A DNA stretch of 64,000 bases from Patescibacteria group bacterium UBA1406 (lineage in GTDB: Bacteria; Patescibacteriota; Microgenomatia; UBA1406). The DNA is taken from positions 302,653 to 366,652 of the forward strand of contig DBQA01000007.1 of assembly GCA_002305675.1 (NCBI GenBank), in the 5' to 3' direction. A model generated the notes under the pieces. The model was not told the origin of the DNA. It worked only from the letters and a program-made list of their open reading frames with translations, and made no database searches. Made by a program: the position numbers and the translations under genes. Below, piece after piece: positions 33,766-53,568 of the stretch (positions within the stretch are counted from its first letter, which is position 1; the number at the start of each line of letters is the position of its first letter).

Positions 33766-33800
33766 CAAAACTCTACCGCTTAAATGGTAGAGTTTTGTTT
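33766..33800 (+). terminator. Intrinsic terminator after hsp20
   Basis: Perfect 12-bp stem CAAAACTCTACC-gcttaaat-GGTAGAGTTTTG followed by TTT. Confidence 0.75.
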
Positions 33801-37055: not shown

Positions 37056-37923
37056 AACGATCACTATTTTAGTAATAATTTTAGCAATATTAGCAGCCGT
37101 CTGGGGAATAACTACGTATTTTCCAAAACTTACACCCGAGACGTCTCCCTATGCAAAAAAAGTAAAATCTTATGATAAAACTGCAGTGCAATCAATTATA
37201 ATTAAAAATTCCTCAGGCTCGCTTGAACTTAAAAAAGAGGACAATACTTGGAAGGTTAATGGTAAAAAGGCGGATGTCTCAAAAATAAACAACCTGGTTA
37301 ATGAACTGTTTCCATCAATTTTCCCAGAAATTATCGCCCAAACAGACAAAAGACATAAAGAGTTTGAACTGACTAAAGATACCGCTACAAGTATCGCCTT
37401 TGACAATAAACTAACCTGGTTGATTGGTAAAAACACTGGTGCGTCAATATATGCCAGATTTGATGATGACAATAATGTATATTTACTTAAATTTGGCACA
37501 TCTAGCCTTTCAACCCAGGCCTCTGACTGGTTTGACAAAACTATCCTTAACTTTGATCAAACAAAAGCATCCAAACTTACCTTTAAAGAAACTGGGAATA
37601 CTACTGTCCTGATTAAAAAAGATGATAAATGGATGGATGAGATAAATAATAAAGAGGCAAAAAAAGATAAAGTCAATTCAATTTTGTCTCAAGCATCAAC
37701 TTTATCTGCTCAGTCATTGTATGACCCCAAAAAAGACATTGCATATCCGAATACCCTAACACTTACCTTCTCTGTTGAATACGAAGGAAAAAGTGAAACA
37801 CTAGAGTTTTCTAAAGGTGGTTCAGATTATTTTGTTAAGCGGCTTTCTGATGGAGAAAAGTTTATTGTTAGCGAATATTCTGTTTCGTCCATAGTTACAG
37901 GATCAAAGGAGGTCTTGAATTAA
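37045..37923 (+). CDS. DUF4340-like membrane-anchored protein associated with GldG-type ABC systems
   Basis: N-terminal TM helix plus a beta-rich repeat body. Overlaps the upstream gene by 11 nt. Assigned by gene context. Confidence 0.45.
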   Translation: MQNKTITILVIILAILAAVWGITTYFPKLTPETSPYAKKVKSYDKTAVQSIIIKNSSGSLELKKEDNTWKVNGKKADVSKINNLVNELFPSIFPEIIAQTDKRHKEFELTKDTATSIAFDNKLTWLIGKNTGASIYARFDDDNNVYLLKFGTSSLSTQASDWFDKTILNFDQTKASKLTFKETGNTTVLIKKDDKWMDEINNKEAKKDKVNSILSQASTLSAQSLYDPKKDIAYPNTLTLTFSVEYEGKSETLEFSKGGSDYFVKRLSDGEKFIVSEYSVSSIVTGSKEVLN

Positions 37924-37928
37924 AACCT

Positions 37929-39122
37929 ATGAATTTAGTTAAACTGTTAGTCGGCATAAAAAAATATATAAAGAAGAGTCAAAAGCCGATTCTCATTGTT
38001 ATTTTCATCTTATTAGTATCTGCGGCTTTCTACAATAATGGTCATATTAGAGATCAGATTGATGACTTCTTAAAAACTATTCGGCAGAAAACTCCTTTTG
38101 CAATTAATACTCCTTATGAAAAGTTAAGGGTTGTTCAGGAAGAGTCTGTCATTGTTAACGCGGTGAAGAAGGTTTCTCCGTCAGTGGTTACGGTAACGAT
38201 TAAAAACTCTAAAAGACCTATCTTAGAATTTTCTCCTTTTGAAGGGTTTAGCCAAAAATTGAGAGATAGCGAACCACAAGATATCGGGACTGGTTTTGTA
38301 ATATCTGCAAATGGTTTGATTGTGACTAATAAACATGTTGTTTCCAATACAGATGCGAAATATAAAATCACCACAAAAGATGAAAAAGTTTATGATGTTC
38401 AAAAAATCTTTCGCGATCCCTTAAATGATTTAGCAATCTTAAAAATTGATGCAAATGGTCTTAAACCGGTAGAGTTTGGAGATTCCTCAAAAATAGATGT
38501 TGGCCAACTAGCTATCGCTATTGGAACTGCATTAGGAGAATTTCGCAATACTGTTACGGTTGGAGTCGTATCAGGAGTAGGCCGAGGTATTACTGCAGGC
38601 AATCCATTTGAAGGGTATGTTGAGCGATTAGATGATGTTATTCAAACCGATGCAGCAATTAATCCTGGCAATTCTGGTGGGCCCCTCCTTAACTCATCAG
38701 GACAGGTTATTGGCATAAATACAGCTGTTTCTGAAAGAGGTCAAAATATTGGTTTTGCTATTCCTTCCAATGTAATCAAAAACGCGCTGGATCAATTTTA
38801 CAAAGAAGGTGGCAAATTCCAAAAACGACCATATCTTGGTGTCAGATATAAATTTGTCAACCGTAGCTTGGCTATTATGAATGAGATTCCCGAAGGAGCA
38901 TATATTCAGGAAGTAGTTTCAGGTTCCCCTGCAGAAAAAGCGGGGCTTGAAGAAGGAGATATTATTACAAAAGTAAACGGAGATAAACTTACCGAGGATG
39001 ACAACTTATCAAAAGTTATTGCCAAAAAGAAAGTGGGAGAAAAAGTAAATCTTGAAGTTTGGAGAGATGAAACTACAAAAACATTCTCTGTCACTTTAGA
39101 AGAATATCCTCAAAATGAATAA
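37929..39122 (+). CDS. HtrA/DegP-family serine protease with PDZ domain
   Basis: Catalytic triad contexts TNKHVV (His), NDLAILKI (Asp), GNSGGPLLN (Ser). C-terminal PDZ (GSPAEKAGLEEGDIITKVNG). Confidence 0.85.
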   Translation: MNLVKLLVGIKKYIKKSQKPILIVIFILLVSAAFYNNGHIRDQIDDFLKTIRQKTPFAINTPYEKLRVVQEESVIVNAVKKVSPSVVTVTIKNSKRPILEFSPFEGFSQKLRDSEPQDIGTGFVISANGLIVTNKHVVSNTDAKYKITTKDEKVYDVQKIFRDPLNDLAILKIDANGLKPVEFGDSSKIDVGQLAIAIGTALGEFRNTVTVGVVSGVGRGITAGNPFEGYVERLDDVIQTDAAINPGNSGGPLLNSSGQVIGINTAVSERGQNIGFAIPSNVIKNALDQFYKEGGKFQKRPYLGVRYKFVNRSLAIMNEIPEGAYIQEVVSGSPAEKAGLEEGDIITKVNGDKLTEDDNLSKVIAKKKVGEKVNLEVWRDETTKTFSVTLEEYPQNE

Positions 39123-39210
39123 ATCTTCATTTCATTGCATGTGAGTAGGGCATCAAATAGTCTTAAATAGGGAGAGGAGTCTCAATTTCCAGTTATCCTG
39201 GAAATGGATT

Positions 39211-39363
39211 TTGTTTATTGAAAATTGTTCTGAATACATCTCGTCCGATACACTGGATGGAATATTCGAGAAATGGATACAATTTAGGACGACAGACTGG
39301 ATAAATTACCTCGAATACCCTGAGTATACAACCAAAGAAACCAATCGACTCTTAAACCTCTAA
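39211..39363 (+). repeat. Gene-remnant repeat D (homolog of 32998..33129)
   Basis: Open frame ...GIFEKWIQFRTTDWINYLEYPEYTTKETNRLLNL* with no ATG start. The core 39291-39325 matches 33027-33061 at 34/35 nt. Confidence 0.65.
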
Positions 39364-39421
39364 TCCTCTCTTTTTAATCTCTTCCAAGATTTTCCCGCCC
39401 AGGGGACGGCAAGAGCAATTC

Positions 39422-39494
39422 ATGGCGTGTTCAACATGCCATTTGACTCTCTGGTCAAGAGTTGGGTCCTTAGGCACTTTGTTTGCTAAGTGCC
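39422..39494. promoter_or_regulatory. Two palindromes upstream of the HTH-res-mod operon (candidate operator sites)
   Basis: ATGGCGTGTT-c-AACATGCCAT (39422-39442, 9/10 symmetric) and GGCACTT-N8-AAGTGCC (39473-39494). Confidence 0.35.
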
Positions 39495-39566
39495 ATTTTG
39501 CGTTGATTTTCCCCATAGAAACAGTATACCAATTTAGCGCTGGTTTTAGTATACTTTTGTTGAGGT

Positions 39567-39752
39567 ATGCCGAAGAAAAACGCTACATTTCCAAAACTGT
39601 TGACTATAAAACAAGCTTCAGAGATCCTGAATGTGCATGTGGAGACTTTAAGGCGTTGGGACAAGCGCGGGAAACTCAAGGCCATAAGGGTAAACGAGCG
39701 TGGCGATAGGCGTTACCGCCCAGAAGACATAGAAAAATTAATGAAAATATAA
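39567..39752 (+). CDS. Excisionase/MerR-type HTH DNA-binding protein (possible R-M controller)
   Basis: LLTIKQASEILNVHVETLRRWDKRGKL...R..R.Y pattern of the excisionase-family HTH. The stop is 1 nt before the res ATG. Confidence 0.7.
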   Translation: MPKKNATFPKLLTIKQASEILNVHVETLRRWDKRGKLKAIRVNERGDRRYRPEDIEKLMKI

Positions 39753-39753
39753 T

Positions 39754-42336
39754 ATGAACAACTTATATCAACAACTAAAATCAGATGTAATTAGCTGGAG
39801 ACAGCAGGGATATCCCTCCTCCTACCCTGTTATTGCAACCATCCTAAACTTCAATAAAAATAATTTTCTAAGACAAGCACAATTTGAGGCACTCGAAACT
39901 TACTGGTATTTGCGACTGGTTAAAAACACCCCCAATATCTTCGAGCTTTATAAAGAATACTTCCAAGGCAAGGATCTCCTGAAAGCTCTTGGGATTTCTC
40001 TGTCAGAGGAGGATCTAACCGACTTATTACTGGAAGGAGGCGGAATAGACGCAATCTTCGAAAAGGTAAAAACTGATAATGTCTTCGTTAAGAAGTATAA
40101 GCTTGAAGCTTTGAGAGAAACCCTCACCCTCCCATATCCAAGTTACATTTTGGCTTTGGCAATGGGTGCAGGGAAAACAATTCTTATTGCCTCCATCATT
40201 GCCACCGAGTTTGCAATGGCTCTGGAATATCAGGAGAAGGACGGCATCTTTGTCAGAAACGCTCTGGTATTTGCGCCAGGAAAGACCATCCTTGGAGCAT
40301 TGAAGGAAATTGCCGATACTCCATACGACAAGATCCTGCCTGCACGCTTCTACAAGTCATTTGTGACCAATGTGAAGTTTACCTATACCAGAGATGGCGA
40401 AAAGGATATTCCCGTCATTCGAGGCAGTTCCTTTAATGTTATCGTCACCAACACCGAGAAAATCAGACTACAAAAAAACAGTATTCCCAAGTCATTTCTC
40501 GGCACACAACTGAGCCTAGGATTAGAAGAAGCCAAAGAGCTGGTTGCCAATCTGCGTTTACAATCAATCACCTCCTTACCTCACTTAGCCGTCTTTTCTG
40601 ACGAAGCGCATCATACCTACGGACAAGCGTTAGCAGAGGATCTCAAGCGGGTGCGCCAAACCATTAACTACATCAGCGAAAAAACCAATCTTCTGGCAGT
40701 TGTTAACACCACAGGCACGCCCTACTTCCAAAGACAGCTCCTGCGGGATGTTATTTACTGGTATGGACTCTCCCAAGGCATTGAAGACGGCATTCTCAAG
40801 GAAGTCCGAGGCAACATTGTTGCCTATAAAGAAGTTTCAGAGGAAGACTTTGTTATCGATATCGTCAAGGACTTTTTTCAGGAATACAAAGATGTCAGAG
40901 TCAATAATGGCGAATACGCAAAATTAGCAATCTACTTCCCCCAGGTTGATGACCTAGATCAGGCTAAACCGATTATTGAACAAACACTTATCTCTCTGAA
41001 ACTAGACCCCTCAGTTGTCTTGCCAGTCCATAACAAATCGCCAGAAGATATCAAGGATCTTTTTGATAACCGCATCAATGACCCGCACCTGCCTTACAGG
41101 GTGTTCTTGCTAGTCAACAAAGGCACAGAGGGATGGAACTGTTTGTCCTTATTTGCTACCGCACTTGCAAGAAAACTTTCTTCGAGTAATAACTTCGTGC
41201 TTCAGGCAGCTAGCAGGTGCCTGAGGCAGGTCAATGGTAATACCAAGAAAGCAAAGATTTATTTATCCCGCGCCAATGTCTCAGTGCTTGACCGCCAGCT
41301 TCAGGAAACCTTTGGTGAGGGCTTGGACGACCTCAATCGAGCCAAAACCGATACTTACCCAGTTAAGATAACTCTCAAAAAACTAGAAATCGAACCAGTT
41401 ATCATCAAGAAGCTTATCCAAAAGATCGTCCCAGAAAGCGATACATCTACCACCTTGAAGGTGGAGAAGCCCAAATCTGACGCCGTAGAGGGGCTTGAAA
41501 AGACTATTTACACCATGTCCAAAACCCAGAGGAAAGGCGTCCTAGTTGAGGTTGATAGCGAAAAATCAAAGCCCAGAGATGTAAAGGTTGATTTATACCA
41601 GGCAGCAGTCTTGCTTGCTCATACTTATCGCCTTGACTCTCTAGAGGTTTATAAGCTCCTTGCACCTCTTTACCCAGATGGAGAGATGTCTGCTGTTGAC
41701 CTAGAGCTTGTCCGTTTACAACTAGAAAAGCAAGTTATCAAATACAAAGTTACTACCGAGACAGTCGAAGAAGCCCTGGCACTTATCAAGACCAAAGGCT
41801 TTGAGGAAGAAGTCGAAGACGGCAAAACCTCCTATGTTACTCACATTAGGGTCAATAAGGACAACCTGGAAAAGTATGTCTTGGATACCGACACTTATAA
41901 AAAGAAGGCGGGTCAAATGCCTTTGTTTGGTTTCCACTATGACCCTTACAACTTTGATTCAGAAGACGAACGAGCTTTCTTTGAACAAATGTTGGACAAA
42001 CTCGGCGAAGATCCAGATAATGTTGAGGATATTTATTTTACAGGCGCACTCACAGATAGGGAGAAAACCGACTTTGCGTTTGAGTATAAAGACAATAAGG
42101 GCGACTGGCATTCATACACACCTGATTTCTTGATCAGAAAGAAAGACGGCAAGTCGCTGATAGTCGAAGTCAAGGGTAAGCCATACAGAAACGAGGCGGC
42201 AGAAAAGGAAATGAAACAACTAGAGGCGATAAATCCTGATAAAATTAAATATGAACTCCTGCTCTTAGAGGAAGGTGAATCGGTGTTTGGTAAAGTAACG
42301 CCAGTCTTTAATTGGATTTACCAAACCCAAAAATAA
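39754..42336 (+). CDS. res: Type III restriction enzyme Res-like subunit (SF2 helicase with C-terminal PD-ExK nuclease)
   Basis: Motif I AMGAGKT (aa 136-142), motif II DEAH (aa 283-286), motif III TGTP, KGTEGWN, motif VI QAASRCLRQ. C-terminal YTPDF...IVEVKGK (D791, E805, K807). Confidence 0.8.
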   Translation: MNNLYQQLKSDVISWRQQGYPSSYPVIATILNFNKNNFLRQAQFEALETYWYLRLVKNTPNIFELYKEYFQGKDLLKALGISLSEEDLTDLLLEGGGIDAIFEKVKTDNVFVKKYKLEALRETLTLPYPSYILALAMGAGKTILIASIIATEFAMALEYQEKDGIFVRNALVFAPGKTILGALKEIADTPYDKILPARFYKSFVTNVKFTYTRDGEKDIPVIRGSSFNVIVTNTEKIRLQKNSIPKSFLGTQLSLGLEEAKELVANLRLQSITSLPHLAVFSDEAHHTYGQALAEDLKRVRQTINYISEKTNLLAVVNTTGTPYFQRQLLRDVIYWYGLSQGIEDGILKEVRGNIVAYKEVSEEDFVIDIVKDFFQEYKDVRVNNGEYAKLAIYFPQVDDLDQAKPIIEQTLISLKLDPSVVLPVHNKSPEDIKDLFDNRINDPHLPYRVFLLVNKGTEGWNCLSLFATALARKLSSSNNFVLQAASRCLRQVNGNTKKAKIYLSRANVSVLDRQLQETFGEGLDDLNRAKTDTYPVKITLKKLEIEPVIIKKLIQKIVPESDTSTTLKVEKPKSDAVEGLEKTIYTMSKTQRKGVLVEVDSEKSKPRDVKVDLYQAAVLLAHTYRLDSLEVYKLLAPLYPDGEMSAVDLELVRLQLEKQVIKYKVTTETVEEALALIKTKGFEEEVEDGKTSYVTHIRVNKDNLEKYVLDTDTYKKKAGQMPLFGFHYDPYNFDSEDERAFFEQMLDKLGEDPDNVEDIYFTGALTDREKTDFAFEYKDNKGDWHSYTPDFLIRKKDGKSLIVEVKGKPYRNEAAEKEMKQLEAINPDKIKYELLLLEEGESVFGKVTPVFNWIYQTQK

Positions 42337-42338
42337 CT

Positions 42339-44138
42339 ATGACAAACGACACAAGTAAAAAAATAAAAATCGGCACACCCAACGGCAGACCAATGCTAAC
42401 CTGGGTGAATAAAAAGCCTCTAGAAACAGTTACGGGTTACCCAACACAACTCACCGAAAGCTTTGGAGACAAAGAAGCCCTCAAAGTGCCTGAATACAGC
42501 AAGCTAGAAAAGAACTGGCACAACCTTCTCTTTCATGGTGATAACAAAGAAGTTCTCGCTTCCCTCCTGGAGCTAGGCTTCAGGGGCAAAGTTGATCTGA
42601 TTTATATTGACCCCCCCTTCGCGAGTAATAAAGACTACATGCGCAAGGTTGAACTTAGAGGACTAAAAGCCCTAGGAAAAATTGAGGAGGATAGCGAATC
42701 AATTATCCAACAGACAATGTATGAGGATATTTGGAAGCGGGATGAATATTTCCAATTTATCTATGACAGATTAATCCTCTTAAAAGAATTATTGAGCGAA
42801 AAAGGAACAATTTATGTCCATCTCGATTACCATGTTTCTCACTATGTAAAAGTAATAATGGATGAGATCTTTGGTCAAGACAATTTTAGAAATGAAATTG
42901 TTTGGTGTTATACAAGCCCCTCTGGGGCAGTAAGAGATTTTCCTGACAAGCATCAAATTATTCTCAGGTATTCAAAATCAGACGATTATCTTTTTAATGG
43001 GGTTAATATTCCATACAAATCTGGCGTCCATGATACAAAAGGGACAGCACTTGGATACACAGGTAAGGAGCGAGAAGTCGATGTAAAAGCTATGGAAGAT
43101 AGTGGTAAATTAATTGAAGATTGGTGGGTCGATATTTGGTCAGCAGACAGATACAGAGGTGAATATACGGGGTTTAGAACTCAAAAGCCATTAGCTCTCC
43201 TTGAGAGGATAATCACCGCTTCATCCAATGCAGGAGACTTAATCCTTGATTGTTTCCTTGGTTCAGGAACAACTTGTGTATCCGCCCAAAAACTGGGCAG
43301 AAGATGGATCGGCGTAGATGTTAATAAAGGATCAATACAGCTTACAGGTAAAAGGCTTCAACCTGTCATTAAAGAACAAACAAAGCAATTGATTAATGGA
43401 CAAATTGCGAAATCTTATAACACATACAAAGTAAACAACTATGACCTGCAGATATTAAAAACAGAAGCTAAAGAGCTGGCAATCCAACAGTATGGTATCA
43501 CCAGAACAAAAACAGAGACATTCTTTGATGGCTTAAGAGATAGCGGTGAGCTGGTAAAAATCATAGACTTCAATCACCCACTAACACTCCTCGATTTACA
43601 GCTGATCAAGGACGAACTCGATAAACGACCCGACGAAGACAGAGATATAGTTGTAATTTGTCTGGGGAGAGAGACAAAAGTCGATTCCTGGGTTGAGGAA
43701 TGGAATAAAAAACAACCTCACAAAGACGCACGCACCAGTAAGCGTATGAGGCAGTTTGTTGTCTTTGATCTTAAAGACAAGAACTTTGTCAGCTACGAAC
43801 CCTCGAAGGCTGAAGTTGAGATTAACAGAGCGGGTAAAGATAAAGTCAAGATTAAGGTTGTCTCTTTTATCTCCCCTTCCATAATCAAACGCTTGGAGCT
43901 TGAGCCAGGACTACTGCAAAAAAAGATTCCAGACTTCAGATCAATGATCGATGTCGTTTTGGTAGATACAAACTATGACAACGAAGTGTTCAAGATTGGT
44001 TTCTCTGATGTCCCAGAGAAACAGAGCGACCTGGTCAAGGGAGAATATGAGCTTGAGATAACAGAAAAACCAACCAAAGTGGCAGTCAAAATCATTGACA
44101 TGTTAGGAGAAGAAGTCTTGATTACCAAAGAAGTGTAA
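42339..44138 (+). CDS. mod: Beta-class N6-adenine/N4-cytosine DNA methyltransferase (Type III Mod-like)
   Basis: Motif IV DPPF (aa 91-94) lies N-terminal to motif I ILDCFLGSGTT, the beta-class order. ATG is 2 nt after the res stop. An extension of about 280 aa follows motif I. Confidence 0.8.
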   Translation: MTNDTSKKIKIGTPNGRPMLTWVNKKPLETVTGYPTQLTESFGDKEALKVPEYSKLEKNWHNLLFHGDNKEVLASLLELGFRGKVDLIYIDPPFASNKDYMRKVELRGLKALGKIEEDSESIIQQTMYEDIWKRDEYFQFIYDRLILLKELLSEKGTIYVHLDYHVSHYVKVIMDEIFGQDNFRNEIVWCYTSPSGAVRDFPDKHQIILRYSKSDDYLFNGVNIPYKSGVHDTKGTALGYTGKEREVDVKAMEDSGKLIEDWWVDIWSADRYRGEYTGFRTQKPLALLERIITASSNAGDLILDCFLGSGTTCVSAQKLGRRWIGVDVNKGSIQLTGKRLQPVIKEQTKQLINGQIAKSYNTYKVNNYDLQILKTEAKELAIQQYGITRTKTETFFDGLRDSGELVKIIDFNHPLTLLDLQLIKDELDKRPDEDRDIVVICLGRETKVDSWVEEWNKKQPHKDARTSKRMRQFVVFDLKDKNFVSYEPSKAEVEINRAGKDKVKIKVVSFISPSIIKRLELEPGLLQKKIPDFRSMIDVVLVDTNYDNEVFKIGFSDVPEKQSDLVKGEYELEITEKPTKVAVKIIDMLGEEVLITKEV

Positions 44139-44170
44139 CCAGATTTTCCCTGATAAAATGACTGTAATGA

Positions 44171-44194
44171 CTGCCCTTAATTGGGCAGTTTTTT
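44171..44194 (+). terminator. Intrinsic terminator between mod and the 1593-aa gene
   Basis: CTGCCC-ttaatt-GGGCAG followed by TTTTTT. Confidence 0.7.
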
Positions 44195-44208
44195 GTAGAT
44201 TATGAAAA

Positions 44209-47200
44209 ATGAAAATTATTATGAATAACGACATTCAAGAGATAAATTGGGCAAACTTCAAAGCAAAGTTTAATGGGAAAGAACAGGCTACTTTTCAGTG
44301 GCTCTGTTATCTTCTATTTTGTGAGGAACACAAACTCTCTCTAGGTATATCCCGTTATGAAAATCATGCTGGAATAGAAACTGACCCAATTACTGTTGGT
44401 CAAGATGTTATTGGGTGGCAAGCAAAATTTTACGAGACTACTCTCTCCAAACATAAGGCGGACTTAATTACGTCAATAGATACCGCTAAGACAAGACATC
44501 CGAATCTGACGAAAATCGTGTTCTATTTGAACCAGGACTTTGGGCAGGATAAAAAGAAGACCGATCCACCTTATAAAGTGGATATTGAAAACCATGCGAA
44601 AGCTAAAAAACTATCTATTATCTGGAAAACTCAAGGCTTCTTTGAATCCCCGTTTGTAACCAGGGATAATTTTGTAATAGCAAAACATTTTTTTAGTCTA
44701 GATAAAACTCTTTTTGACCTTATTTCAGAGTTGAAAAGGCACACTCTTGCCATTTTGAATCCTATTCGCTCAAACATTTTATTTAACGGCAGAGAGATAA
44801 GAATAAACAGAGCTGATACTACAGAGGCTTTGCAGAAGAATCTAAAAGATGGGGTGCCAGCAATATTAAGTGGAGAAGGTGGAATCGGAAAAACAGCTAT
44901 TATAAAAGACTTATATGATGTCGTAGGAAAAAACATACCATTATTTGTGTTCAAAGCGACTGAATTCAATAACCTCACCAATGTTAACAATCTCCTCAGT
45001 AGTTACGGCTCTTTTACCGTTAATGATCTGGCAACCGCCTACACAGGCTTAGAGGAAAAATGTATTGTTATTGACTCCGCCGAGAAATTGTCAGACATCG
45101 AAGACAAGGAAGTTTTCAAAACATTCGTTAACACTTTTCTTGAAAACAAATGGAAAATTATTTTTACTACAAGGCACAATTATTTAGACGACTTAAGGTA
45201 TGTGCTTATAAGTTTATATGGTCTTGCCTTTCAGACACAGGACATTAAAAAAATTAGTAATGAAGAACTAATAAGCCTTTCTCAAAATTATAATTTCTCC
45301 TTACCAAAAGACGAAAGGGTGCAGGACTTAATTTGCAACCCATTTTATCTTAATGAATATCTGCAAAACTATAACGTCATAAAACAAGATATTACTTACT
45401 CCGACTTCAAGGACACTTTGTGGAATAAAAAGATTGCTAACACGGCATATACAAAAGATCGAACCCATATCCGAAGAGAAGAGTGTTTCATGGCACTAGC
45501 AAAGAAAAGAGCTGACGAGGGGAGCTTTTTAGTTGAAGCTAACACTCTTGATCTTACTATTCTCCAAAAATTAATAGATGACGAGATCGTCGGATACGAG
45601 AAAAGCTCACGAGGATATTTTATTACCCACGATATTTATGAAGAATGGGCGTTAGAAAAGTATATAGAAAGCTCGTTTCGTTTAAAAAATAAAATTGCCG
45701 ATTTCTATAATAATTTAGGCAGCTCTCTTGCTATCCGAAGATCATTCAGACATTGGCTTTCTGACAAGCTTCTCGTCGATAAAAATGCCGTTAAGTCACT
45801 AATTGAAACAACTTTATCTGACTCAGCTATAGCAAGTTACTGGCAAGACGAAGTATTAGTTTCAGTTTTGTTGTCAGACCACAGCAAGGAAATTCTTGAA
45901 CTCTTTGAAGAAAAGCTGTTGGAGAACGATGCGAAATTATTAGTAAAAATTACCTTTTTACTCAGAATTGCCTGCAAGGGAATTGACGAAGCTACCTTCA
46001 AATCTTTTGGAATTTCCAGAACAAATGGGATAGCAATACAAACTTTATTTACCCAACCAAAAGGAAGCGGTTGGAATTACATTATTGATTTCATCAATCG
46101 CAACAAAGAAAAGTTAGGTCTTAAAAATGTAAATACCTTTTTAGCCATACTTGAAGATTGGAATAGTAAGTGTAAGGGAGGAGAAACTACAAAAGCTGCT
46201 AGTCAGATTGCTTTGTTCTACTATGAAAGTATCGCAGAGCACGGTGGTTTTGGTTATAGATCTCGTGACGAATTTGAGAAAAAAATTATTAAAATAATTT
46301 TAGACGGATCAAGAGAAGTTAAAAAAGAACTCTCATCCATCATAGATGAAATTGTCCAAAAAAAGGAGATTACACACAGGGATAAATATTACGAACTCGC
46401 TGAAGTGATGCTTTCATCTGTGGTTGATAGTGCAGAAGTGGCGCAGGCAATCCCTGAAAAATTACTCTCGTTAGCAAATGTATATTGGATGAGAGATGTT
46501 GAGCGCGATGATCCATATGGCAGTCACTCAATAGAAATTGAGCAATACTTTGGTCTAGCTTTCCATCTTCAGGAGTATTTCCCGTCAAGTCCGTATCAAA
46601 CCCCTATTCTTATTTTGCTACGCACTGAGCCAGATAAAACTTTGGATTTTATTCTTTCATTTACAAACAAAACCGTTGAATACTATACAAAGTCATCGCT
46701 TAGCAAAAATGAATTTCAAGAGGTAGAGATCTTTGCTAACGATACAAAATCTCGAACTCAATATATCAGTTGCAGGTTATGGGAGATGTATAGGGGCACT
46801 CATGTAGCTCCTGGTGTATTGGAGTCCATGTATATGGCGCTCGAAAAATGGCTTCTTGAGTTTGGAAAAACAGCTACAACCGAAGAATTAGAAAGGTGGT
46901 GTGTATATTTATTTAAAAACTCCAAGTCAGCCTCGATTACTTCCATCATTGTCAGTATTATTCTTGCTTATCCGTTCAAATTATTTAATGTCGCTGCGAT
47001 GATATTTAAGACAAAAGAATTCTTCCTTTATGACACGACAAGATATGTAAAAGACCAAAGTCACAAGAGTATGCTTGTAAGTTTGCGAGATAATTTTCCT
47101 CAACGAGAGTATCTTACTCAATTCTTCCAGGAGGAAAGAATAAAGGCTTGTGATGACAGACATCGAACAAATACCCTTGAAAATATAGCCTTATACTACC

Positions 47201-48990
47201 AATTATTTAGAAGCAATGAAGAAACTGACGAGCAAGCTTCCGAAAGACAAAGAGTCATATGGAAAATATTTGATAATTACTACAAGAAATTACCCAATAC
47301 TTCAAGAGAAACAAAAGCTGATAAAACCTGGCGGTTGTATTTAGCCCGTATGGACAGACGAAAAATGCAGCCGAAGGTAGAAAAAAAAGATGGACAAACA
47401 CTGATAAGTTTTAATCCTGACCTTGATAAAGATCTTAAAAAATATAGCGAGGACTCCTTACAAAAAAACAAAAAAGCGATGGCCTATACCTCTCTTAGCG
47501 TATGGGCAAATCTAAGGTGGAGAAAAGAAGGAAACAAATATACAGAGTATAAGAAATACGAAGACGATCCACTGAGTGCTTTAAGTGAACTAAAAAAACT
47601 CATAAAAGAACTTAAGGGCGGCGATAAAGACATGGGTTTGTTTTATCGTGCGACCCCCGTGTATGTGTGCGCAGTCTTAGTAAGAGATTTTAAGGAGAAA
47701 CTTAAACTTGAAGAGTTTAACTACTGCGAAGATATTCTAATTAAGCACGCATCTCTTCCTCTTACAGACGAATACAAATACTCAATTGGCGATGGGATTG
47801 AGGCTTCAATTGGATCACTACCTTACCTCTACACCTCCTCCTTCAATACTGAAAGAATTAAAAAGCTGCTTCTACTGTTGCTGTTTGATGATTTTCCCAT
47901 AGGGATGGGCGGAGGAAGATTAAGAGACTACCCAATCATTGCAATTTTGCATCATCTTTGGAAAACAAATCCCAAAGACGCGCACTCACTGTTTTTAGGG
48001 TTCCTACTACTAAAACCCAGATACGAAGACTTGTTTGAGGAGATCAGACAAGAAGACATCAAAAAACAGGTATATAGTTTATCAAGAAAGAAAGTTCTTA
48101 GAGAATTTGAAAAAAGGTATGGGAAGGAAATCGAAAATGCTGTATCTAACCAAATTAGATACTCCGATATCGAAGATGTCGAATCCATTGACTTAGAAGT
48201 CCTTAACACAGCATTTGAGCTGATACCCAATCAGACCCAAGACGAAGACCATCAAAAGTTCCTAGCAACTATATTCCCTTTGTTTTCTAAAAAGCTTTCT
48301 GACAACGAAAGAAACGGTTATACCTTAAGTAACCGCTTCTTAAGGAAATTTGCATACTTCGTATTAACCTCAAATCGTGAAGGGATTGAAAAATATATAC
48401 AACCGTTTGTTGATAACATCAAGGACTTTGACTACGCCGCAGATCTTTTTAGTGATTTTGTTAGTGTTGAAGATGAAATCCATCAATATGAAGAGTTTTG
48501 GATAGTTTGGCAACTTTTTTATGATGCAGTCGTAAAAATGACTAAGGAGAAATGGCAACCACATAATACAAACACAATAATTCACAATTATCTATTTGCT
48601 TGGCAATATTGGAAAAAAGACGCTAAGAAATGGCTCTCATTAAAAAACAGGGAGAAGGCATTCTTTAAAAAAGTGGCAGAGGATATGGGACATCACCCAG
48701 CTGTCTTATACTCCATATCTAAACTACTAAATGAGATTGGAAGTGGATTTGTAGATGATGGGATAGTATGGCTTAGTGATATGTTGGAAAAAAACACCAA
48801 TCTAGGTTCAGAAGACCTAGAGGTTAATACAGTTTATTATCTGGAGATTATCGTCAGGAATTATGTGTTTCATAACAGGCGTGCAGTAAAAACTGACCTC
48901 ACCCTTAAAAAAAGAATGCTCACAATACTCGACTTCCTGATAGAAAAGGCATCGGCAACTGCATACCTCATAAGAGAAGATATCTTGTAA
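44209..48990 (+). CDS. Giant nuclease-STAND NTPase-helical repeat protein (Avs-like architecture, putative antiphage)
   Basis: N-terminus FQWLCYLL...GIETD...IGWQAK (Mrr/PD-(D/E)xK-like). Walker A GEGGIGKT (nt 44872-44895), Walker B CIVIDSAE, IIFTTR motif. More than 1200 aa of apparently helical sequence follows. Confidence 0.6.
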   Translation: MKIIMNNDIQEINWANFKAKFNGKEQATFQWLCYLLFCEEHKLSLGISRYENHAGIETDPITVGQDVIGWQAKFYETTLSKHKADLITSIDTAKTRHPNLTKIVFYLNQDFGQDKKKTDPPYKVDIENHAKAKKLSIIWKTQGFFESPFVTRDNFVIAKHFFSLDKTLFDLISELKRHTLAILNPIRSNILFNGREIRINRADTTEALQKNLKDGVPAILSGEGGIGKTAIIKDLYDVVGKNIPLFVFKATEFNNLTNVNNLLSSYGSFTVNDLATAYTGLEEKCIVIDSAEKLSDIEDKEVFKTFVNTFLENKWKIIFTTRHNYLDDLRYVLISLYGLAFQTQDIKKISNEELISLSQNYNFSLPKDERVQDLICNPFYLNEYLQNYNVIKQDITYSDFKDTLWNKKIANTAYTKDRTHIRREECFMALAKKRADEGSFLVEANTLDLTILQKLIDDEIVGYEKSSRGYFITHDIYEEWALEKYIESSFRLKNKIADFYNNLGSSLAIRRSFRHWLSDKLLVDKNAVKSLIETTLSDSAIASYWQDEVLVSVLLSDHSKEILELFEEKLLENDAKLLVKITFLLRIACKGIDEATFKSFGISRTNGIAIQTLFTQPKGSGWNYIIDFINRNKEKLGLKNVNTFLAILEDWNSKCKGGETTKAASQIALFYYESIAEHGGFGYRSRDEFEKKIIKIILDGSREVKKELSSIIDEIVQKKEITHRDKYYELAEVMLSSVVDSAEVAQAIPEKLLSLANVYWMRDVERDDPYGSHSIEIEQYFGLAFHLQEYFPSSPYQTPILILLRTEPDKTLDFILSFTNKTVEYYTKSSLSKNEFQEVEIFANDTKSRTQYISCRLWEMYRGTHVAPGVLESMYMALEKWLLEFGKTATTEELERWCVYLFKNSKSASITSIIVSIILAYPFKLFNVAAMIFKTKEFFLYDTTRYVKDQSHKSMLVSLRDNFPQREYLTQFFQEERIKACDDRHRTNTLENIALYYQLFRSNEETDEQASERQRVIWKIFDNYYKKLPNTSRETKADKTWRLYLARMDRRKMQPKVEKKDGQTLISFNPDLDKDLKKYSEDSLQKNKKAMAYTSLSVWANLRWRKEGNKYTEYKKYEDDPLSALSELKKLIKELKGGDKDMGLFYRATPVYVCAVLVRDFKEKLKLEEFNYCEDILIKHASLPLTDEYKYSIGDGIEASIGSLPYLYTSSFNTERIKKLLLLLLFDDFPIGMGGGRLRDYPIIAILHHLWKTNPKDAHSLFLGFLLLKPRYEDLFEEIRQEDIKKQVYSLSRKKVLREFEKRYGKEIENAVSNQIRYSDIEDVESIDLEVLNTAFELIPNQTQDEDHQKFLATIFPLFSKKLSDNERNGYTLSNRFLRKFAYFVLTSNREGIEKYIQPFVDNIKDFDYAADLFSDFVSVEDEIHQYEEFWIVWQLFYDAVVKMTKEKWQPHNTNTIIHNYLFAWQYWKKDAKKWLSLKNREKAFFKKVAEDMGHHPAVLYSISKLLNEIGSGFVDDGIVWLSDMLEKNTNLGSEDLEVNTVYYLEIIVRNYVFHNRRAVKTDLTLKKRMLTILDFLIEKASATAYLIREDIL

Positions 48991-49115
48991 TCAAATGTGA
49001 CGCCCTTGACCGCGTGTAGCGGCTTGTGTGGGACTTTCGTGCCTAGAGTGGCATCTAACTACCTTAATTTAGCTTCAGAAACCTTGTGGGGGATTTGTTG
49101 AGGGAATTAGGGGTT

Positions 49116-49268
49116 TTAATAGCTACAGTCTCGAATTGTTGCCCAATCAACTGTGATCCCAGAACTGGCTCGGTTAATAACACACTGCATGGTTTCCCGA
49201 AACCACCAATACTCAAAAGCCAGGAAAAGGGCAAATAGCAGGAAGCCAATAACGATAGCCTTCTTCAT
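49116..49268 (-). CDS. Small hydrophobic protein (50 aa), not in the ORF track
   Basis: ATG 49268 lies 2 nt after the stop of 49271..50131. MKKAIVIGFLLFALFLAFEYWWF is a TM helix. The competing track ORF 49064..49249 is in another frame. Confidence 0.3.
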   Translation of the reverse strand: MKKAIVIGFLLFALFLAFEYWWFRETMQCVINRASSGITVDWATIRDCSY

Positions 49269-49270
49269 AT

Positions 49271-50131
49271 TTACAGCTTATCAAGATCGTTGATGTTGTT
49301 GCGATAGATGATAATCTGCCCGCCGTTAGTGATGGTAATATCCACCCTTTGATAGTTGGTTGATTTCATCTTGATGCACCACACGCCCTGGGCGTTCTGA
49401 TAAGCTCCTTCTCTTTGTTTGTCGACATCTCCACAAACCTCATGCTCTTTGGTAACTGAGACAGTCTTATCTTCCCAGAACATAAAGAAGTTACCTGGTT
49501 TTGTTCCCTCGAACTTGTAGGTCATCTTGGTAATGTCGATACCCAAGATATCCTTATGCTCAATCAGAAATCTCTCGGCAACTTCCCTTAATTCCTCTGG
49601 CTTACTGTAAATGCCTGAGTAGTCGTAATTAGGCAAGGGGTCGGTTCTCTTGGTGCGCTCAGCATCTCCAACACCAATGATGTAATTGGTTTTGGGATCT
49701 ACTTCAAAGCTATGGTTTTCAGCTTCGTAATACTCCACAGCTGGGTTGTTATAGTCCGTTCCACTCTCATCTGGCTTGCCATTAAAACGGCTACAGATGA
49801 ACTCTGGTTCAAATTCTTTACTGACAGTTGGATAAATGCCGTGCAGGAACTCTCTGATGTTGGCTACTGCTTTGGCTCTTTCCGCCTCTGGTCGTGCAGA
49901 GATGTTACAGAACTCCTGGCGAACGGCTTTATACTCGTCGCTTTCCTTGTTGACGATTTGAGCCATTCTTTGCTGGAGTTCGATGATCTTTTGAGACTTG
50001 GCGTCATTTTGGATTGATTGAACAACTTTTGATTGAGCCAGGAAACGAGGGACTAACACGACAGCCAAGATAACAATTACAGAGAGGAAAAGAATAAAGA
50101 AAAGGACATTAGACTTATTTTTATGTTTCAT
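49271..50131 (-). CDS. Secreted/membrane-anchored protein, unknown function
   Basis: N-terminal anchor FFILFLSVIVILAVVLV. GAGGAGGTGA RBS. No motif recognised. Confidence 0.5.
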   Translation of the reverse strand: MKHKNKSNVLFFILFLSVIVILAVVLVPRFLAQSKVVQSIQNDAKSQKIIELQQRMAQIVNKESDEYKAVRQEFCNISARPEAERAKAVANIREFLHGIYPTVSKEFEPEFICSRFNGKPDESGTDYNNPAVEYYEAENHSFEVDPKTNYIIGVGDAERTKRTDPLPNYDYSGIYSKPEELREVAERFLIEHKDILGIDITKMTYKFEGTKPGNFFMFWEDKTVSVTKEHEVCGDVDKQREGAYQNAQGVWCIKMKSTNYQRVDITITNGGQIIIYRNNINDLDKL

Positions 50132-50224
50132 ATTAATTTTTCACCTCCTCTTGGGTCAAAACTAATAATTACCCTTGAGGTGTTGCATATTAACTTCGCT
50201 TAAGGGAGATTGTCAAATCAAACA

Positions 50225-50350
50225 AAAAGCTCCCCCCAGCGATGGCTTGCGCCACCTGCCACCCTTTCGGATGACAGCCTCGACAGCGCTCTAGGGAGAG
50301 CTTATTGCTGTCGAGGACTTGATTGCCATGCCCTTGCGGGTTTAGGCGGT
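50225..50350 (-). ncRNA. Candidate structured RNA element (unclassified)
   Basis: GC-rich patch in an AT-rich island. On the minus strand: CCC-GCAA-GGG; a 10-bp stem CCUCGACAGC/GCUGUCGAGG with inner GCUCU/AGAGC; CUGUCAUCC-GAAA-GGGUGGCAG (two G-U pairs valid only on the minus strand); and closing AUGGC/GCCAU. Confidence 0.35.
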
Positions 50351-50364
50351 TAGATTGTTAAATT

Positions 50365-50556
50365 CTACGGCTTATCTCTGCCGTGCAATAGCCTCAAAAT
50401 GTCATCTTTTTTGAAACGCCTATCTTTCCTTTGACCAAAACGGACGGATTGTAGTATGCCCTTTTTGTCCCACTGACGAAGGGTATTGGGATGAACGCTA
50501 AGCAATTTACTTGCCTGCGAAAGAGTCAAAAGCTGTGGAACGGTTTGATCGGTCAT
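50365..50556 (-). CDS. Excisionase/MerR-type HTH DNA-binding protein (paralog of 39567..39752)
   Basis: LLTLSQASKLLSVHPNTLRQWDKKGILQSVRFGQRKDRRF aligns residue for residue with the 39567 protein. Confidence 0.7.
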   Translation of the reverse strand: MTDQTVPQLLTLSQASKLLSVHPNTLRQWDKKGILQSVRFGQRKDRRFKKDDILRLLHGRDKP

Positions 50557-50577
50557 AATTGATAGCAGACTCGCTAT

Positions 50578-51723
50578 TTGTTAACATTAGACTACAATAA
50601 GCAACAACTTATTGCAACTATGACGATGAAAATAAAAACTTCAGGATTAATTAACTATTGGAAGCTATTCCTATTGAGGTATCTACTACTCGATCACGGT
50701 GTTGTAGATTTAGGAATATGTCTAAAAGAAACTACTGAATTATTAAAACAGTTCCTAGGTCTCACTCAAGAACTGAGACTAAAAAATGTCAGTGCAGGCG
50801 TAACTGACCAAACAGCGGAATATCTTTTAGATAGATACAAAAGTGATGAACAAGGATTTATAAATAGGGTAATTGACAGAAAACTTACCGTAAAAGATTT
50901 ATATTCACTATTGAATCACCCAAGTATTCCCAACGACGATACCAACGCGCACTTAATAACAGATATTCTTTCCAATTTAATCATTACTTTTGACTTTCAA
51001 CAAAGCGAAAAGAAAATAAAAGACACTCTTGATACTTGTCTCAAATCAATTCTTCAAACGAAACTTAAAACCCATAAAAGGATGCCTCTGGCTTCGAATT
51101 TTTACTCTTATTATTATCAAAAAAATCATTTTATTAAGTCTATCCCTCGTTATCTCGAGGAGTGTGCTTCTGATGTGATTAATCTTCTTGAAGGACGAGA
51201 CGGAAAGTTACTTGGAGAAGAAAACAGTAGAACAACCTTTCTAGAAACTCTCCTCTTATTGGAGCGAGAAGGCATAGTAACGATAACCAGAATGGGCGTA
51301 GCAGAATCAGAATCGCTTAGTTTAACGATGATTACTATAAAGGTGAATGATTTTTTCAAAAGATCTGCTATTCCTCAAAAAACAACCCCCTCCCTAGCTC
51401 CTCAACTACCCAAAGGCTGGGGTTTAGTAATTGATGAGCGTCAACCAAAAATAACGAACTTTAGCCAGGTTGTTTTTACCTTCCCAAATAACTGGTCAAA
51501 CAAATATCGATATTTCGTGTGCCTGTGGAAAAATTATGGACAGAAAGTCGACTATAAAACGGTTTACGAGTTTGAGTCTGGAGGACAAACTTATCCAGGA
51601 AGGGAAAAACCCTGGCTAGTAAATAGAAGAGTCAGGGATACTTTAACTAAACTAAAGGGCAAACTCGCAAAACTTCCAATTAACATTGAGATCTCAAAAG
51701 GCTTCACCCTGACAATAGAATAA
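50578..51723 (+). CDS. Hypothetical protein of the mobile element (possible C-terminal winged helix)
   Basis: 381 aa (TTG start; ATG alternatives about 14-16 codons in). The C-terminal VNRRVRDTLTKLKGKL...ISKGFTL is reminiscent of OmpR-type wHTH tails (weak). Confidence 0.4.
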   Translation: MLTLDYNKQQLIATMTMKIKTSGLINYWKLFLLRYLLLDHGVVDLGICLKETTELLKQFLGLTQELRLKNVSAGVTDQTAEYLLDRYKSDEQGFINRVIDRKLTVKDLYSLLNHPSIPNDDTNAHLITDILSNLIITFDFQQSEKKIKDTLDTCLKSILQTKLKTHKRMPLASNFYSYYYQKNHFIKSIPRYLEECASDVINLLEGRDGKLLGEENSRTTFLETLLLLEREGIVTITRMGVAESESLSLTMITIKVNDFFKRSAIPQKTTPSLAPQLPKGWGLVIDERQPKITNFSQVVFTFPNNWSNKYRYFVCLWKNYGQKVDYKTVYEFESGGQTYPGREKPWLVNRRVRDTLTKLKGKLAKLPINIEISKGFTLTIE

Positions 51724-51813
51724 ATCTCGTAAAAGCGCTTAACTGCTGACAAATGGCGTCAGTCGGCTTCAGTTTTCTTCAATTGACTTGCTTTTAATCC
51801 CATCCCGTAAGCT

Positions 51814-51844
51814 ATGGCTAGAACAAAAACTCTAGCCATTTTTT
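51814..51844 (+). terminator. Intrinsic terminator
   Basis: 9-bp stem ATGGCTAGA-acaaaaac-TCTAGCCAT followed by TTTTT. Confidence 0.75.
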
Positions 51845-51850
51845 ATAACT

Positions 51851-52099
51851 ATGAACCAGCAATTAAACGAGCATTACTACCAAACCAGCGATTTATCTCT
51901 CGCTACCACTCTCTCCCTCTGGTGTCCAATCGAAGATATTGATCGTTCCAACCCCCGTAAGGCTTTGTTTATCTTCCAAAACACAAAAGAACTTCAGAAA
52001 CTCGTTGATGAGTATTACCGCAATGAAATCAAAGTGTCGCCACAGGTTTATTTCAACCAGTTGCGAGTCGTTAAAGCACGGCTCTATGCCAACGAATAA
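51851..52099 (+). CDS. Small phage-associated protein (DUF5659-like)
   Basis: 82 aa. YQTSDLSLATTLSLW...ALFIF...EL..LV..Y resembles the DUF5659 pattern (from memory). Confidence 0.4.
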   Translation: MNQQLNEHYYQTSDLSLATTLSLWCPIEDIDRSNPRKALFIFQNTKELQKLVDEYYRNEIKVSPQVYFNQLRVVKARLYANE

Positions 52100-52101
52100 C
52101 T

Positions 52102-52275
52102 ATGATAAGCAGAAATTTATTACTAGAACTAAAGCAAATTATAGAGGAGGAATTTAACCTTAAGCTGACTCTCCAAGAGGTCACAGAGATTGGCACTGGC
52201 TTACTAGCATTTGTCGAAACCTTATTGAAAGTCGAGTCTGTAAACATTCAAGGAGGTAAACAAAATGGAAAATAG
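52102..52275 (+). CDS. Small hypothetical protein (57 aa, below the track cutoff), paralog of the next ORF
   Basis: ATG is 2 nt after the previous stop. LLELKQIIEEEFNLKLTLQEVTEIGTGLLAFVETLL parallels LISALRLVLEAEFGIKVAQDEASILANTLTDFFEVL in 52265..52516. Confidence 0.4.
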   Translation: MISRNLLLELKQIIEEEFNLKLTLQEVTEIGTGLLAFVETLLKVESVNIQGGKQNGK

Positions 52276-52516
52276 AGACGACAAACTAATAAGTGCATTG
52301 AGGTTGGTTTTGGAGGCAGAATTCGGTATCAAAGTAGCCCAAGACGAAGCATCGATATTGGCAAATACCCTGACAGATTTCTTTGAAGTGCTCGCACTGA
52401 TTGAACACAAAAAAGAATGTCCTAAAAAAGATGAACTTGAAAAAATCCTGAAACAAAAGTGGGGCGAGAAAAGAAAAATTAATATGAACATAAATCACCA
52501 TGACAATCACGATTAA
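52265..52516 (+). CDS. Small hypothetical protein
   Basis: 83 aa. GGAGG RBS (aaggaggtaaacaaaATG). Overlaps its neighbours by 11 and 17 nt. Confidence 0.5.
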   Translation: MENRDDKLISALRLVLEAEFGIKVAQDEASILANTLTDFFEVLALIEHKKECPKKDELEKILKQKWGEKRKINMNINHHDNHD

Positions 52517-52853
52517 CGACATAACAGTCAAAATTAAACTGTTGAAGTCAGAAACTATTCTGGCTCAGGCAACAATAATCCTCTTCGATGTTTGGAAAGA
52601 GCATGGTTGGAAGATCTTAAAATCGGATCGATTGCATCCCCAATTTCAAGATTTCATTTGGATTCAAGCCCCTAGTTATAAATTTATCGGCAAGTGGAAT
52701 GAGATCGTTTTTATTGACGATAGCAAGCTCTTTGAACAAGTCCAGGAGAAAATCTACGACGCTTACCACCTTGCCAGAAGCAAAGATCCTAATTATAGAG
52801 TTGAAAATCAAATTTCGACAGAGGAGATAAACCCAGATGACATCAACATATAA
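52500..52853 (+). CDS. SpoVG-like small nucleic-acid-binding protein (tentative)
   Basis: ITVKIKLLKSETILAQATIILFDVWKEHGWKILKS...IWIQAPSYK resembles the SpoVG N-terminal beta pattern. Confidence 0.35.
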   Translation: MTITINDITVKIKLLKSETILAQATIILFDVWKEHGWKILKSDRLHPQFQDFIWIQAPSYKFIGKWNEIVFIDDSKLFEQVQEKIYDAYHLARSKDPNYRVENQISTEEINPDDINI

Positions 52854-52922
52854 AACACATAGTAACTATAAAGGGATTTATAAAGGGACATTTATAGTAA
52901 CAATTTTTCCCTTTAAGAGGGA

Positions 52923-53501: not shown

Positions 53502-53568
53502 GAACAGGTATCTATTATTGTTTGATATTGCTCAAAAGTTCCTTTATGTTGTGTGTTGCAAAATTACT

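Follow-up and report, generated by a model that had tools for sequence, protein, structure and literature searches.

Avs4 is activated by a phage portal protein, upon which tetramers form and the N-terminal nuclease is switched on; for EcAvs4, portal activation, tetramerisation and non-specific DNA cleavage have been described (PMC11897194). The MADS defence system requires MAD6, MAD7 and MAD8, and its MAD1, an accessory 'widespread regulator', can be deleted with little effect on defence (10.1101/2023.03.30.534895). Genomic islands that bear restriction-modification (R-M) systems have already been documented in Patescibacteria (PMC12455944). Here we analyze a stretch of 64,000 nucleotides (nt) from the Patescibacteria group bacterium UBA1406 (contig DBQA01000007.1, positions 302,653 to 366,652; referred to as the window), in which a small helix-turn-helix (HTH) gene, the R-M genes res and mod and a giant gene follow each other. 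An earlier note on this DNA had proposed that the four genes are either two independent defence systems placed side by side or an undescribed multi-gene system. Our comparisons indicate that, very probably, two autonomous systems of known kinds sit in adjacent cargo positions of an island, linked by location and co-transfer and not by mechanism.

The four co-oriented open reading frames (ORFs) of the earlier note were all found on the plus strand at its coordinates (Table 1). Its domain-level reading, with a small HTH protein, a Res helicase-nuclease, a Mod methyltransferase and a giant nuclease-STAND protein, agrees with the profile and motif matches. The genes are separated by 1 nt (HTH and Res), 2 nt (Res and Mod, from the ATG of Mod, which agrees with the gene calls in relatives) and 70 nt (Mod and the giant ORF). 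The similar AT-rich composition that had been ascribed to them is roughly true, but the GC content at third codon positions (GC3) spans 0.47–0.48 in HTH and Res, 0.40 in Mod and 0.35 in the giant gene, compared with 0.47–0.50 in the island backbone. We count the contrast between Res (0.47) and the giant gene (0.35) for the independence of both systems.

By its sequence, the giant protein of 1593 amino acids (aa) is Avs4 (AVAST type 4), an already characterized single-gene system. Residues 13–1593 match profile positions 1–1579 of the NCBIfam equivalog NF041815 with 2003.3 bits (cutoff 1500), and the PADLOC Avs4 model PDLC02169 is covered from profile position 3 to 1570 of 1570. Against the EcAvs4 structure (PDB 8DGF), a single colinear HMMER domain of 1387 bits relates residues 12–1593 to residues 4–1587. 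The predicted architecture, colinear with EcAvs4, comprises an N-terminal Mrr-like nuclease, a central STAND NTPase and a C-terminal sensor. The nuclease motif GWQAK is located at residue 69, Walker A (GEGGIGKT) at residue 222 and Walker B (CIVIDS) at residue 285, and all three are invariant across 12 homologs of 49–95% identity. We notice that the first ATG (44209) is ATT in the relative L086 and that relatives have their gene calls beginning with the second ATG; the true start is thus probably at 44221. The resulting length of 1589 aa compares with 1587 aa in EcAvs4, and no extra domain is present relative to EcAvs4. More than 1500 Avs4 homologs make up a large family of constant protein length, whose members already bear the name 'AVAST type 4 anti-phage nuclease Avs4', also in Patescibacteria; Candidatus Collierbacteria has an Avs4 of 71% identity. 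By orthology to EcAvs4, the Avs4 of the window would be triggered by a portal protein, form tetramers and cleave DNA. The earlier note had assigned the giant protein to a possibly undescribed system and had suggested a PADLOC search. In that search the protein is named Avs4 from end to end, as it is by the NCBIfam model, while Mod matches MTase_III and the HTH protein matches mad1.

We assign HTH-Res-Mod to an already described kind of system, a tightly coupled Type III-like R-M operon. Res combines a predicted superfamily 2 (SF2) helicase with a C-terminal PD-(D/E)xK nuclease, as judged from Pfam ResIII (28.6 bits, cutoff 22.5), a Walker A motif GAGKT at residue 138, a DEAH motif at 283 and PD-x15-EVK at 790–807. 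Weak matches connect its C-terminus to TnsA-like and DUF1064 nucleases, and Res itself to PADLOC REase_III (1.5e-5) and to the NCBIfam BPTD_3080 restriction endonuclease (61 bits against a cutoff of 800). The Res family has more than 4000 members of 860–870 aa, and annotated proteins of Candidatus Woesebacteria and Candidatus Roizmanbacteria reach at least 90% identity to the Res of the window. In the window and in all seven Res-family loci, down to 49% identity, res precedes mod.

Mod is classed as a beta-class N6-adenine DNA methyltransferase. It matches Pfam N6_N4_Mtase (4e-46) and, over nearly the whole profile, PADLOC MTase_III PDLC03633 (5e-65); its best PDB relative is the Mod of EcoP15I (4ZCF_A, 1e-22). 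The motif DPPF (residue 91) precedes FLGSG (residue 306), with a variable region at residues 188–293 between them. This region is 3–40% identical to relatives (mostly 14–40%), whereas the rest of Mod, outside the N-terminal ~67 residues, is about 60–100% identical (mostly 80% or more). At the DNA level, all Mod comparisons are interrupted at 42905–42915 and resume at 43178–43248. We interpret residues 188–293 (~42900–43217) as a target-recognition domain that has been swapped between six related islands. Since the domain is replaced between Mod alleles that are otherwise 80–100% identical, sister islands would differ in their methylation and restriction specificities.

The neighborhoods of homologs were compared in both directions. 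A diverse sample of Avs4 comprised 80 loci on one-genome-per-species contigs from many phyla, at 38–73% identity, and a single-protein metagenome scan returned 8 loci. No relative of the Res or HTH of the window occurred within 10 kb in any of the 80 diverse loci, and a distant generic methyltransferase match was present in 7 of them. Any methyltransferase-like gene, of Types I, IIG/IIL, II or III, was found within 5 kb in about 16–18 loci (~20%), and an R-M operon directly upstream and co-oriented in roughly 10% of the set. A Pfam census of 370 neighbor ORFs (at least 200 aa, within 5 kb of Avs4) revealed no dominant partner. The commonest families were recombinases of the serine and tyrosine types; next came scattered R-M domains of all types (N6_N4, N6_Mtase, MmeI, C5, D12/DpnII) and AbiE, and no family was common to more than a few of the 80 loci. 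Meanwhile, Res/Mod was found in none of three Avs4 loci on viral contigs. In the reverse direction, Avs4 was found in none of seven Res-Mod loci (L100–L103 at 72–83% identity, L107–L109 at 49–51%), all of which have Mod directly downstream. The res/mod adjacency that the earlier note had suggested looking for among homologs of the giant protein is thus mostly lacking.

The close relatives display how the two systems have been combined. Loci whose Avs4 is at least 80% identical to that of the window show three architectures, all on one strand and all headed by the same HTH gene. The first is HTH-Res-Mod-Avs4 (window, L081 and L090; L088 and L096 are cut within Mod). The second is HTH-orf224-Mod517-Res771-Avs4, with an unrelated Type III system in the order mod to res (L086, L087). 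In the third (L089), an intact Avs4 of 1591 aa follows the HTH gene after a 26-nt gap, and no R-M system is present. At 72–77% Avs4 identity, the upstream position holds Type I R-M in two different forms (L098, L110), or no R-M at all: a divergent resolvase (L082), a TetR gene (L097) or a transposase (L099).

Cassettes are also exchanged on the other side. The DNA of L101–L103 matches the window from about 39520 through HTH, Res, Mod and the hairpin that follows Mod (to 44193–44208). Homology resumes just after the Avs4 stop codon in L101 and L102 (49000–49107), and in the backbone segments 50187–50256 and 51926–52265 in L103. In the position of Avs4, L101 and L102 carry orf201-orf237-MauJ-like, and L103 carries orf316-Mrr_cat-SLFN/AlbA_2, a cargo pair with PADLOC matches to Type IV restriction and candidate systems. 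Each part therefore persists intact alone, Avs4 behind the HTH gene in L089 and Res-Mod in L100–L103 and L107–L109, in line with the juxtaposition of two independent systems that the earlier note had considered.

A true composite, in which HTH, Res, Mod and Avs4 act together and R-M activity or methylation status gates the STAND effector, appears highly improbable to us. Although the genes share a strand and a short gap, although their association is stable in five contigs of the closest clade (window, L081, L088, L090, L096), and although R-M systems are repeatedly found just 5' of Avs4 in the clade from the candidate phyla radiation (CPR), these upstream systems are of four unrelated kinds or absent. 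The same Res-Mod unit is found with other cargo and the same junction sequences, the Avs4 of L089 is intact without any R-M, and this Res is lacking in all of the diverse loci. Furthermore, Avs4 has no extra domain, published work treats it as an independent, portal-activated receptor (PMC11897194), and the sole multi-gene system hinted at, MADS through mad1, needs MAD6-8, which none of 7 proteins matched. The undescribed multi-gene system of the earlier note is refuted by the absence of co-occurrence and by the swapping of cassettes among close relatives. Its suggestion that methylation status or Res translocation feeds the STAND effector finds no support, because Avs4 lacks an extra domain relative to EcAvs4 and the upstream R-M is interchangeable or absent.

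The earlier note had also noticed an intrinsic terminator between mod and the giant gene (44171–44194) and had taken it as evidence against their coupling. The hairpin and its T-run are real (44169–44196), with an 8-bp stem that includes 5 G-C pairs, a 6-nt loop and six T. The 87-nt intergenic region folds with -21 kcal/mol (z = -4.5 against shuffles). A terminator scan alone is not significant (11 sites against 8.4 +/- 3.3 expected), and the hairpin is credible because it is conserved in 9 related loci. It is kept 5' of Avs4 in L081, L088, L090 and L096, as a variant after the different Res in L086, and behind Mod in L101–L103, in which different genes come next, starting 10–25 nt past the T-run. 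We therefore regard the hairpin as a generic conserved left junction of the cargo slot; as it stands before non-Avs4 cargo in L101–L103, it is not peculiar to Mod and Avs4 and gives no evidence on their relationship, contrary to the earlier use of it. We also considered a terminator hairpin as a general feature of Avs4 and rejected this: terminator-like hairpins precede 14 of 86 Avs4 genes, compared with 14 of 433 neighboring ORFs, and almost all of the 14 Avs4 genes belong to the CPR clade.

Several observations weigh against two unconnected systems of known kinds. On the side of Res, neither the single sequence nor a 16-sequence profile found a PDB relative, no relationship to characterized Type III Res enzymes was detectable by sequence, and an AlphaFold2 model from a 16-sequence alignment was unusable (pLDDT 55, pTM 0.35). 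We name the pair 'Type III-like' because Res lacks a PDB relative even by profile and its structure model is too poor. On the side of the arrangement, 7 of the 8 contigs with upstream sequence and an Avs4 of at least 80% identity have a co-oriented Type III R-M system immediately 5' of Avs4. Across the wider CPR clade, this position is taken by four different R-M cassettes, and the gaps in L098 and L110 are 14–17 nt with no terminator. A generic benefit of having R-M and then Avs4, through co-expression or synergy, may perhaps exist. As the R-M cassettes that recur are unrelated, we take the pattern to reflect generic clustering, or perhaps such a generic benefit, and no specific system. Finally, between the T-run of the hairpin and the start codon of Avs4, we recognized no sigma-70-like site, GGAGG or Shine-Dalgarno sequence, as the earlier note had stated for the promoter and Shine-Dalgarno sequence of the giant gene. 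Some transcriptional dependence of Avs4 on the upstream operon is plausible.

This last point leads to the idea that the two systems are functionally independent and transcriptionally coupled. Avs4 would have no promoter of its own and would be expressed by low read-through of a leaky terminator from the promoter controlled by the HTH protein. We give this idea considerable weight, if somewhat less than even. The 12–24 nt between T-run and start codon are free of promoter-like sites, the same hairpin lies 10–25 nt before any cargo gene that follows Mod in L101–L103, and the promoter region 5' of the HTH gene is conserved across variants. Avs4 of L089 lies 26 nt after HTH with no terminator, and Avs4 of L098 and L110 lies 14–17 nt after Type I R-M. 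However, the hairpin is a canonical strong terminator with its 8-bp G+C-rich stem and T6. In L082, L097 and L099, Avs4 must have its own promoter, since it is preceded by a divergent gene. Because CPR promoters are poorly defined, a promoter may also overlap the hairpin, for example at TAGATT (44196–44201), which would produce a near-leaderless mRNA. Such read-through would refine rather than exclude the juxtaposition of two systems, with one regulator setting the level of both.

The HTH protein (61 aa) contains a MerR/excisionase-type domain (Pfam MerR_1 9e-14, HTH_17 5e-12) and also matches TIGR01764 'excise' (35.5 bits, cutoff 28.8) and PADLOC mad1 (9e-15). Every close variant of the island is headed by a copy of 78–97% identity, and Res-Mod loci at ~50% identity lack it. 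Because it is absent from these more distant loci, we consider it not intrinsic to either function. A putative promoter region located 12–44 nt 5' of the HTH start is conserved in the window, L081, L086, L100, L101 and L103. It contains two boxes, of which Box 2 reads TGTATAAT in L089, L100 and L101. Most likely, the HTH protein regulates this promoter just upstream of its own gene. We also tried MADS membership, to which the mad1 match pointed, and rejected it: the mandatory MAD6-8 were unmatched, and no other mad model was found among the 7 proteins scanned.

On the other hand, the small HTH protein might be the excisionase (recombination directionality factor) of the island, acting with its serine recombinase and not as a regulator of the defence operon. 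The match to the TIGR01764 'excisionase family DNA-binding' model exceeds its cutoff, the best PHROG matches are 'excisionase and transcriptional regulator', the gene and the recombinase lie at opposite ends of the island, the gene at the extreme left, and IS607-type serine recombinases have a similar N-terminal HTH. However, L101 and L102 keep the HTH gene and the promoter with no recombinase seen within 9 kb, the gene is translationally coupled to Res across a 1-nt gap, and it is absent in more distant Res-Mod loci. Another unit of the island is headed by a second HTH paralog, a pattern that points rather to a family of leader regulators. Moreover, to our knowledge, large serine integrases generally work with directionality factors of other types. 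We judge the excisionase role unlikely and weaker than that of a promoter regulator.

The 9.4-kb block is cargo of an integrative island of roughly 15.6 kb (about 39.52–55.2 kb). By comparison with relatives, the left edge lies at 39519–39544, where sister-island homology begins, and homology with L081 spans 39544–55212. At the right end, a large serine recombinase, the predicted island integrase, is followed by a tRNA-Asn gene whose 3' end overlaps the recombinase ORF, and GC climbs to 0.53 beyond it. The recombinase is 71–74% identical in L081 and L096, with a tRNA alongside in both. A search for att-type repeats at the island ends gave none above shuffled controls.

Table 1. Features of the window and of related loci discussed in the text (positions of the window unless a locus is named).
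Feature	Coordinates	Strand	Description
Putative promoter/operator region of the HTH-led operon	39523-39555	+	Conserved
Box 1	39523-39530	+	AGTATACC; conserved upstream of HTH
Box 2	39548-39555	+	AGTATACT; resembles a -10 element
HTH	39567-39752	+	61 aa
Res	39754-42336	+	860 aa
Mod	42339-44138	+	599 aa from the ATG at 42339; TTG at 42312 is a less likely start
Intrinsic-terminator-like hairpin	44169-44196	+	ACTGCCC-TTAATT-GGGCAGT followed by T6
Giant ORF (Avs4)	44209-48990	+	1593 aa; start probably 44221, giving 1589 aa
Conserved non-coding element	49020-49140		~130 nt, right edge of the Avs4 slot; core TTTCGTGCCTAGAGTGG at 49035-49051
orf286	49271-50131	-	Backbone gene, N-terminal membrane anchor
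LOOT RNA (Rfam RF03000)	50241-50348	-	74.5 bits (gathering cutoff 46.4)
LOOT RNA in sister islands	L081 13776-13896; L089 8825-8936; L096 6842-6952; L102 19620-19736; L103 17635-17748		79-93 bits
Second HTH_17/MerR paralog	50365-50556	-	63 aa; 65 bits against an HMM built from the leader HTH; Pfam HTH_17 9e-10
Large serine recombinase (island integrase)	53473-55182	+	Pfam Resolvase, Recombinase, Zn_ribbon_recom; PHROG 95 integrase 5e-79
tRNA-Asn (GTT)	55141-55216	-	Right island edge; ARAGORN; Rfam tRNA 68 bits
Unannotated Avs4-adjacent protein	L082 14766-16415; L097 6001-7722; L098 14765-15859; L064 14838-15911		
Conserved Avs4 leader	L082 ~9900-10000; L097 ~1120-1222; L099 ~1380-1479		~75 nt

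Downstream of Avs4, the island backbone contains several conserved landmarks. The non-coding element behind the Avs4 stop codon is 75–86% identical in L081, L088, L089, L093, L096, L101 and L102, with differing flanking genes. L101 carries it at 16528–16603, and L102 has two direct copies (4013 and 17740) that bracket 13.7 kb with R-M and cargo. A reading of it as a structured RNA found no support, as Rfam gave no match and RNAalifold on both strands found 0–1 compensatory pairs. The element may serve in recombination or as a boundary signal. The minus-strand unit that follows, HTH2-LOOT-orf286, is headed by the second HTH paralog, whose counterpart in L096 lies at 6968–7159 on the minus strand. 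orf286 has no match in Pfam, PADLOC, NCBIfam or PHROG, and homologs of 35–76% identity occupy the same position in L081, L088, L089, L093 and L096.

The LOOT RNA lies antisense to the defence block in every island where it was found. It is placed between the HTH paralog and a variable ORF, which is orf286-like in four loci and an unrelated ORF of 220 aa in L102 and 331 aa in L103. It looks like a conserved 5' leader before a variable gene. We know of no function or host that has been assigned to LOOT RNA.

These landmarks admit a more speculative view, in which the conserved promoter and HTH protein form a cargo-expression platform that drives exchangeable defence cassettes in a serine-recombinase island family circulating among CPR bacteria. 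The cassettes may include two kinds of Type III R-M, Avs4, MauJ-like genes and Mrr with SLFN/AlbA_2. The hairpin, the ~130-nt element and the LOOT leader may be recombination landmarks for exchange as well as expression signals, and the level of the toxic Avs4 may be set by regulated read-through of the junction terminator. Taken with all its parts, we hold this view to be rather doubtful, and we keep to two known systems in adjacent cargo positions.

Several further observations concern the island and its surroundings. A 192-aa backbone protein (52923–53501, plus strand) weakly matches a terminase small subunit in PHROG (1e-4). Considering also the integrase and the excisionase-like HTH, the island may be a phage satellite and not a plain integrative element. 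In L086 (14768–14958), homology jumps from window position 49044, after Avs4, to 55034–55128, the last ~100 nt of the recombinase gene. L086 is a decayed, immobilized copy, since the backbone and the integrase are lost and HTH, R-M and Avs4 are kept. To the left, a low-GC tract (29500–39500, 0.32–0.39) begins about 10 kb before the comparative edge of the island and contains genes for ArsR, a permease, Hsp20, an ABC transporter and an HtrA-type protease. Two direct copies of a 48-nt repeat (33027–33074 and 39291–39338, 90% identical) enclose 6.3 kb of the tract, outside this edge, and L081 906–1006 matches window 32988–33087. The low-GC tract could be a second, adjacent acquired segment.

Two observations concern Avs4 loci other than the window. 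The gene of an unannotated protein of 549 or about 365 aa begins 4–8 nt after Avs4 in four CPR contexts that differ from each other (Table 1), and it lies about 4 kb downstream in L002, L003 and L106; the Avs4 identity of these loci ranges from 48% to 77%. The protein has no Pfam match, its only PADLOC match is LmuB at 1e-3, and it is absent in the window. We consider it a better candidate for an Avs4-associated gene than R-M. Meanwhile, where Avs4 lies behind divergent genes (L082, L097, L099), it is preceded by a conserved ~75-nt leader (cacaggcgaag...gccagccca) with no Rfam family match. This leader ends in a terminator-like hairpin 15–40 nt before the Avs4 start, and the stems differ compensatorily between L082 and L097/L099.

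On the basis of these assignments, we propose how the two systems of the window would work. Mod would methylate adenine in host DNA at a site set by the exchangeable target-recognition domain, and the Res-Mod complex would cut unmethylated incoming DNA through the DEAH helicase motor and the PD-(D/E)xK nuclease. The MerR-type HTH protein would regulate the conserved promoter just 5' of the operon. When a phage escapes restriction, the C-terminal sensor of Avs4 would bind its portal protein, the STAND NTPase would drive tetramerization, and the N-terminal Mrr-like nuclease would degrade DNA, so that the infection is aborted. The result would be a layered defence with restriction first and abortive infection second.

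The two-way neighborhood test closes the lead on a composite system: the cluster consists of two known systems side by side, and PADLOC and NCBIfam already name the key protein. What the locus offers is a clear example, from the poorly studied CPR bacteria, of how an integrative island exchanges its defence cargo at defined junctions. It also provides a genomic home for the orphan LOOT RNA, in the backbone of an island family and before a variable gene, and the conserved boundary element may mark sites of cassette exchange.

Compared with EcAvs4 (8DGF), the Avs4 of the window has the same length, colinearity over the full protein, and the same GWQxK nuclease motif, Walker A and Walker B. In contrast, its identity to the Escherichia ortholog (L041) is ~42%, its source is a CPR-type island and not an enterobacterial genome, and the Avs4 of its clade is placed behind a terminator-like hairpin. 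MADS resembles the window in that the HTH protein matches mad1 and, like mad1, is a small regulator-type gene heading a methyltransferase-containing defence operon; it differs in MAD6-8, to which the 7 proteins scanned from the cluster and the adjoining flank gave no match.

With the Type III R-M systems EcoP15I and EcoP1I, the window shares a beta-class N6-adenine Mod with an internal variable target-recognition domain, for which the Mod of EcoP15I is the best solved relative. Res likewise has an SF2 DEAH helicase and a C-terminal PD-(D/E)xK nuclease, and the genes are adjacent and translationally coupled. The order res-mod, however, is the reverse of the classical mod-res, although the order is a convention and no strict criterion. 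Res of the window has no detectable sequence relationship to the Res of EcoP15I, and in its lineage a small MerR-type HTH gene heads the operon. As in the defence islands and hotspots on integrative elements, a low-GC insert lies beside a tRNA and an integrase, several systems are packed on one strand, and cassettes vary between otherwise homologous islands. The window differs from them in that its slots are bounded by conserved junctions, namely the hairpin, the ~130-nt element and the LOOT leader, and in that its integrase is a large serine recombinase.

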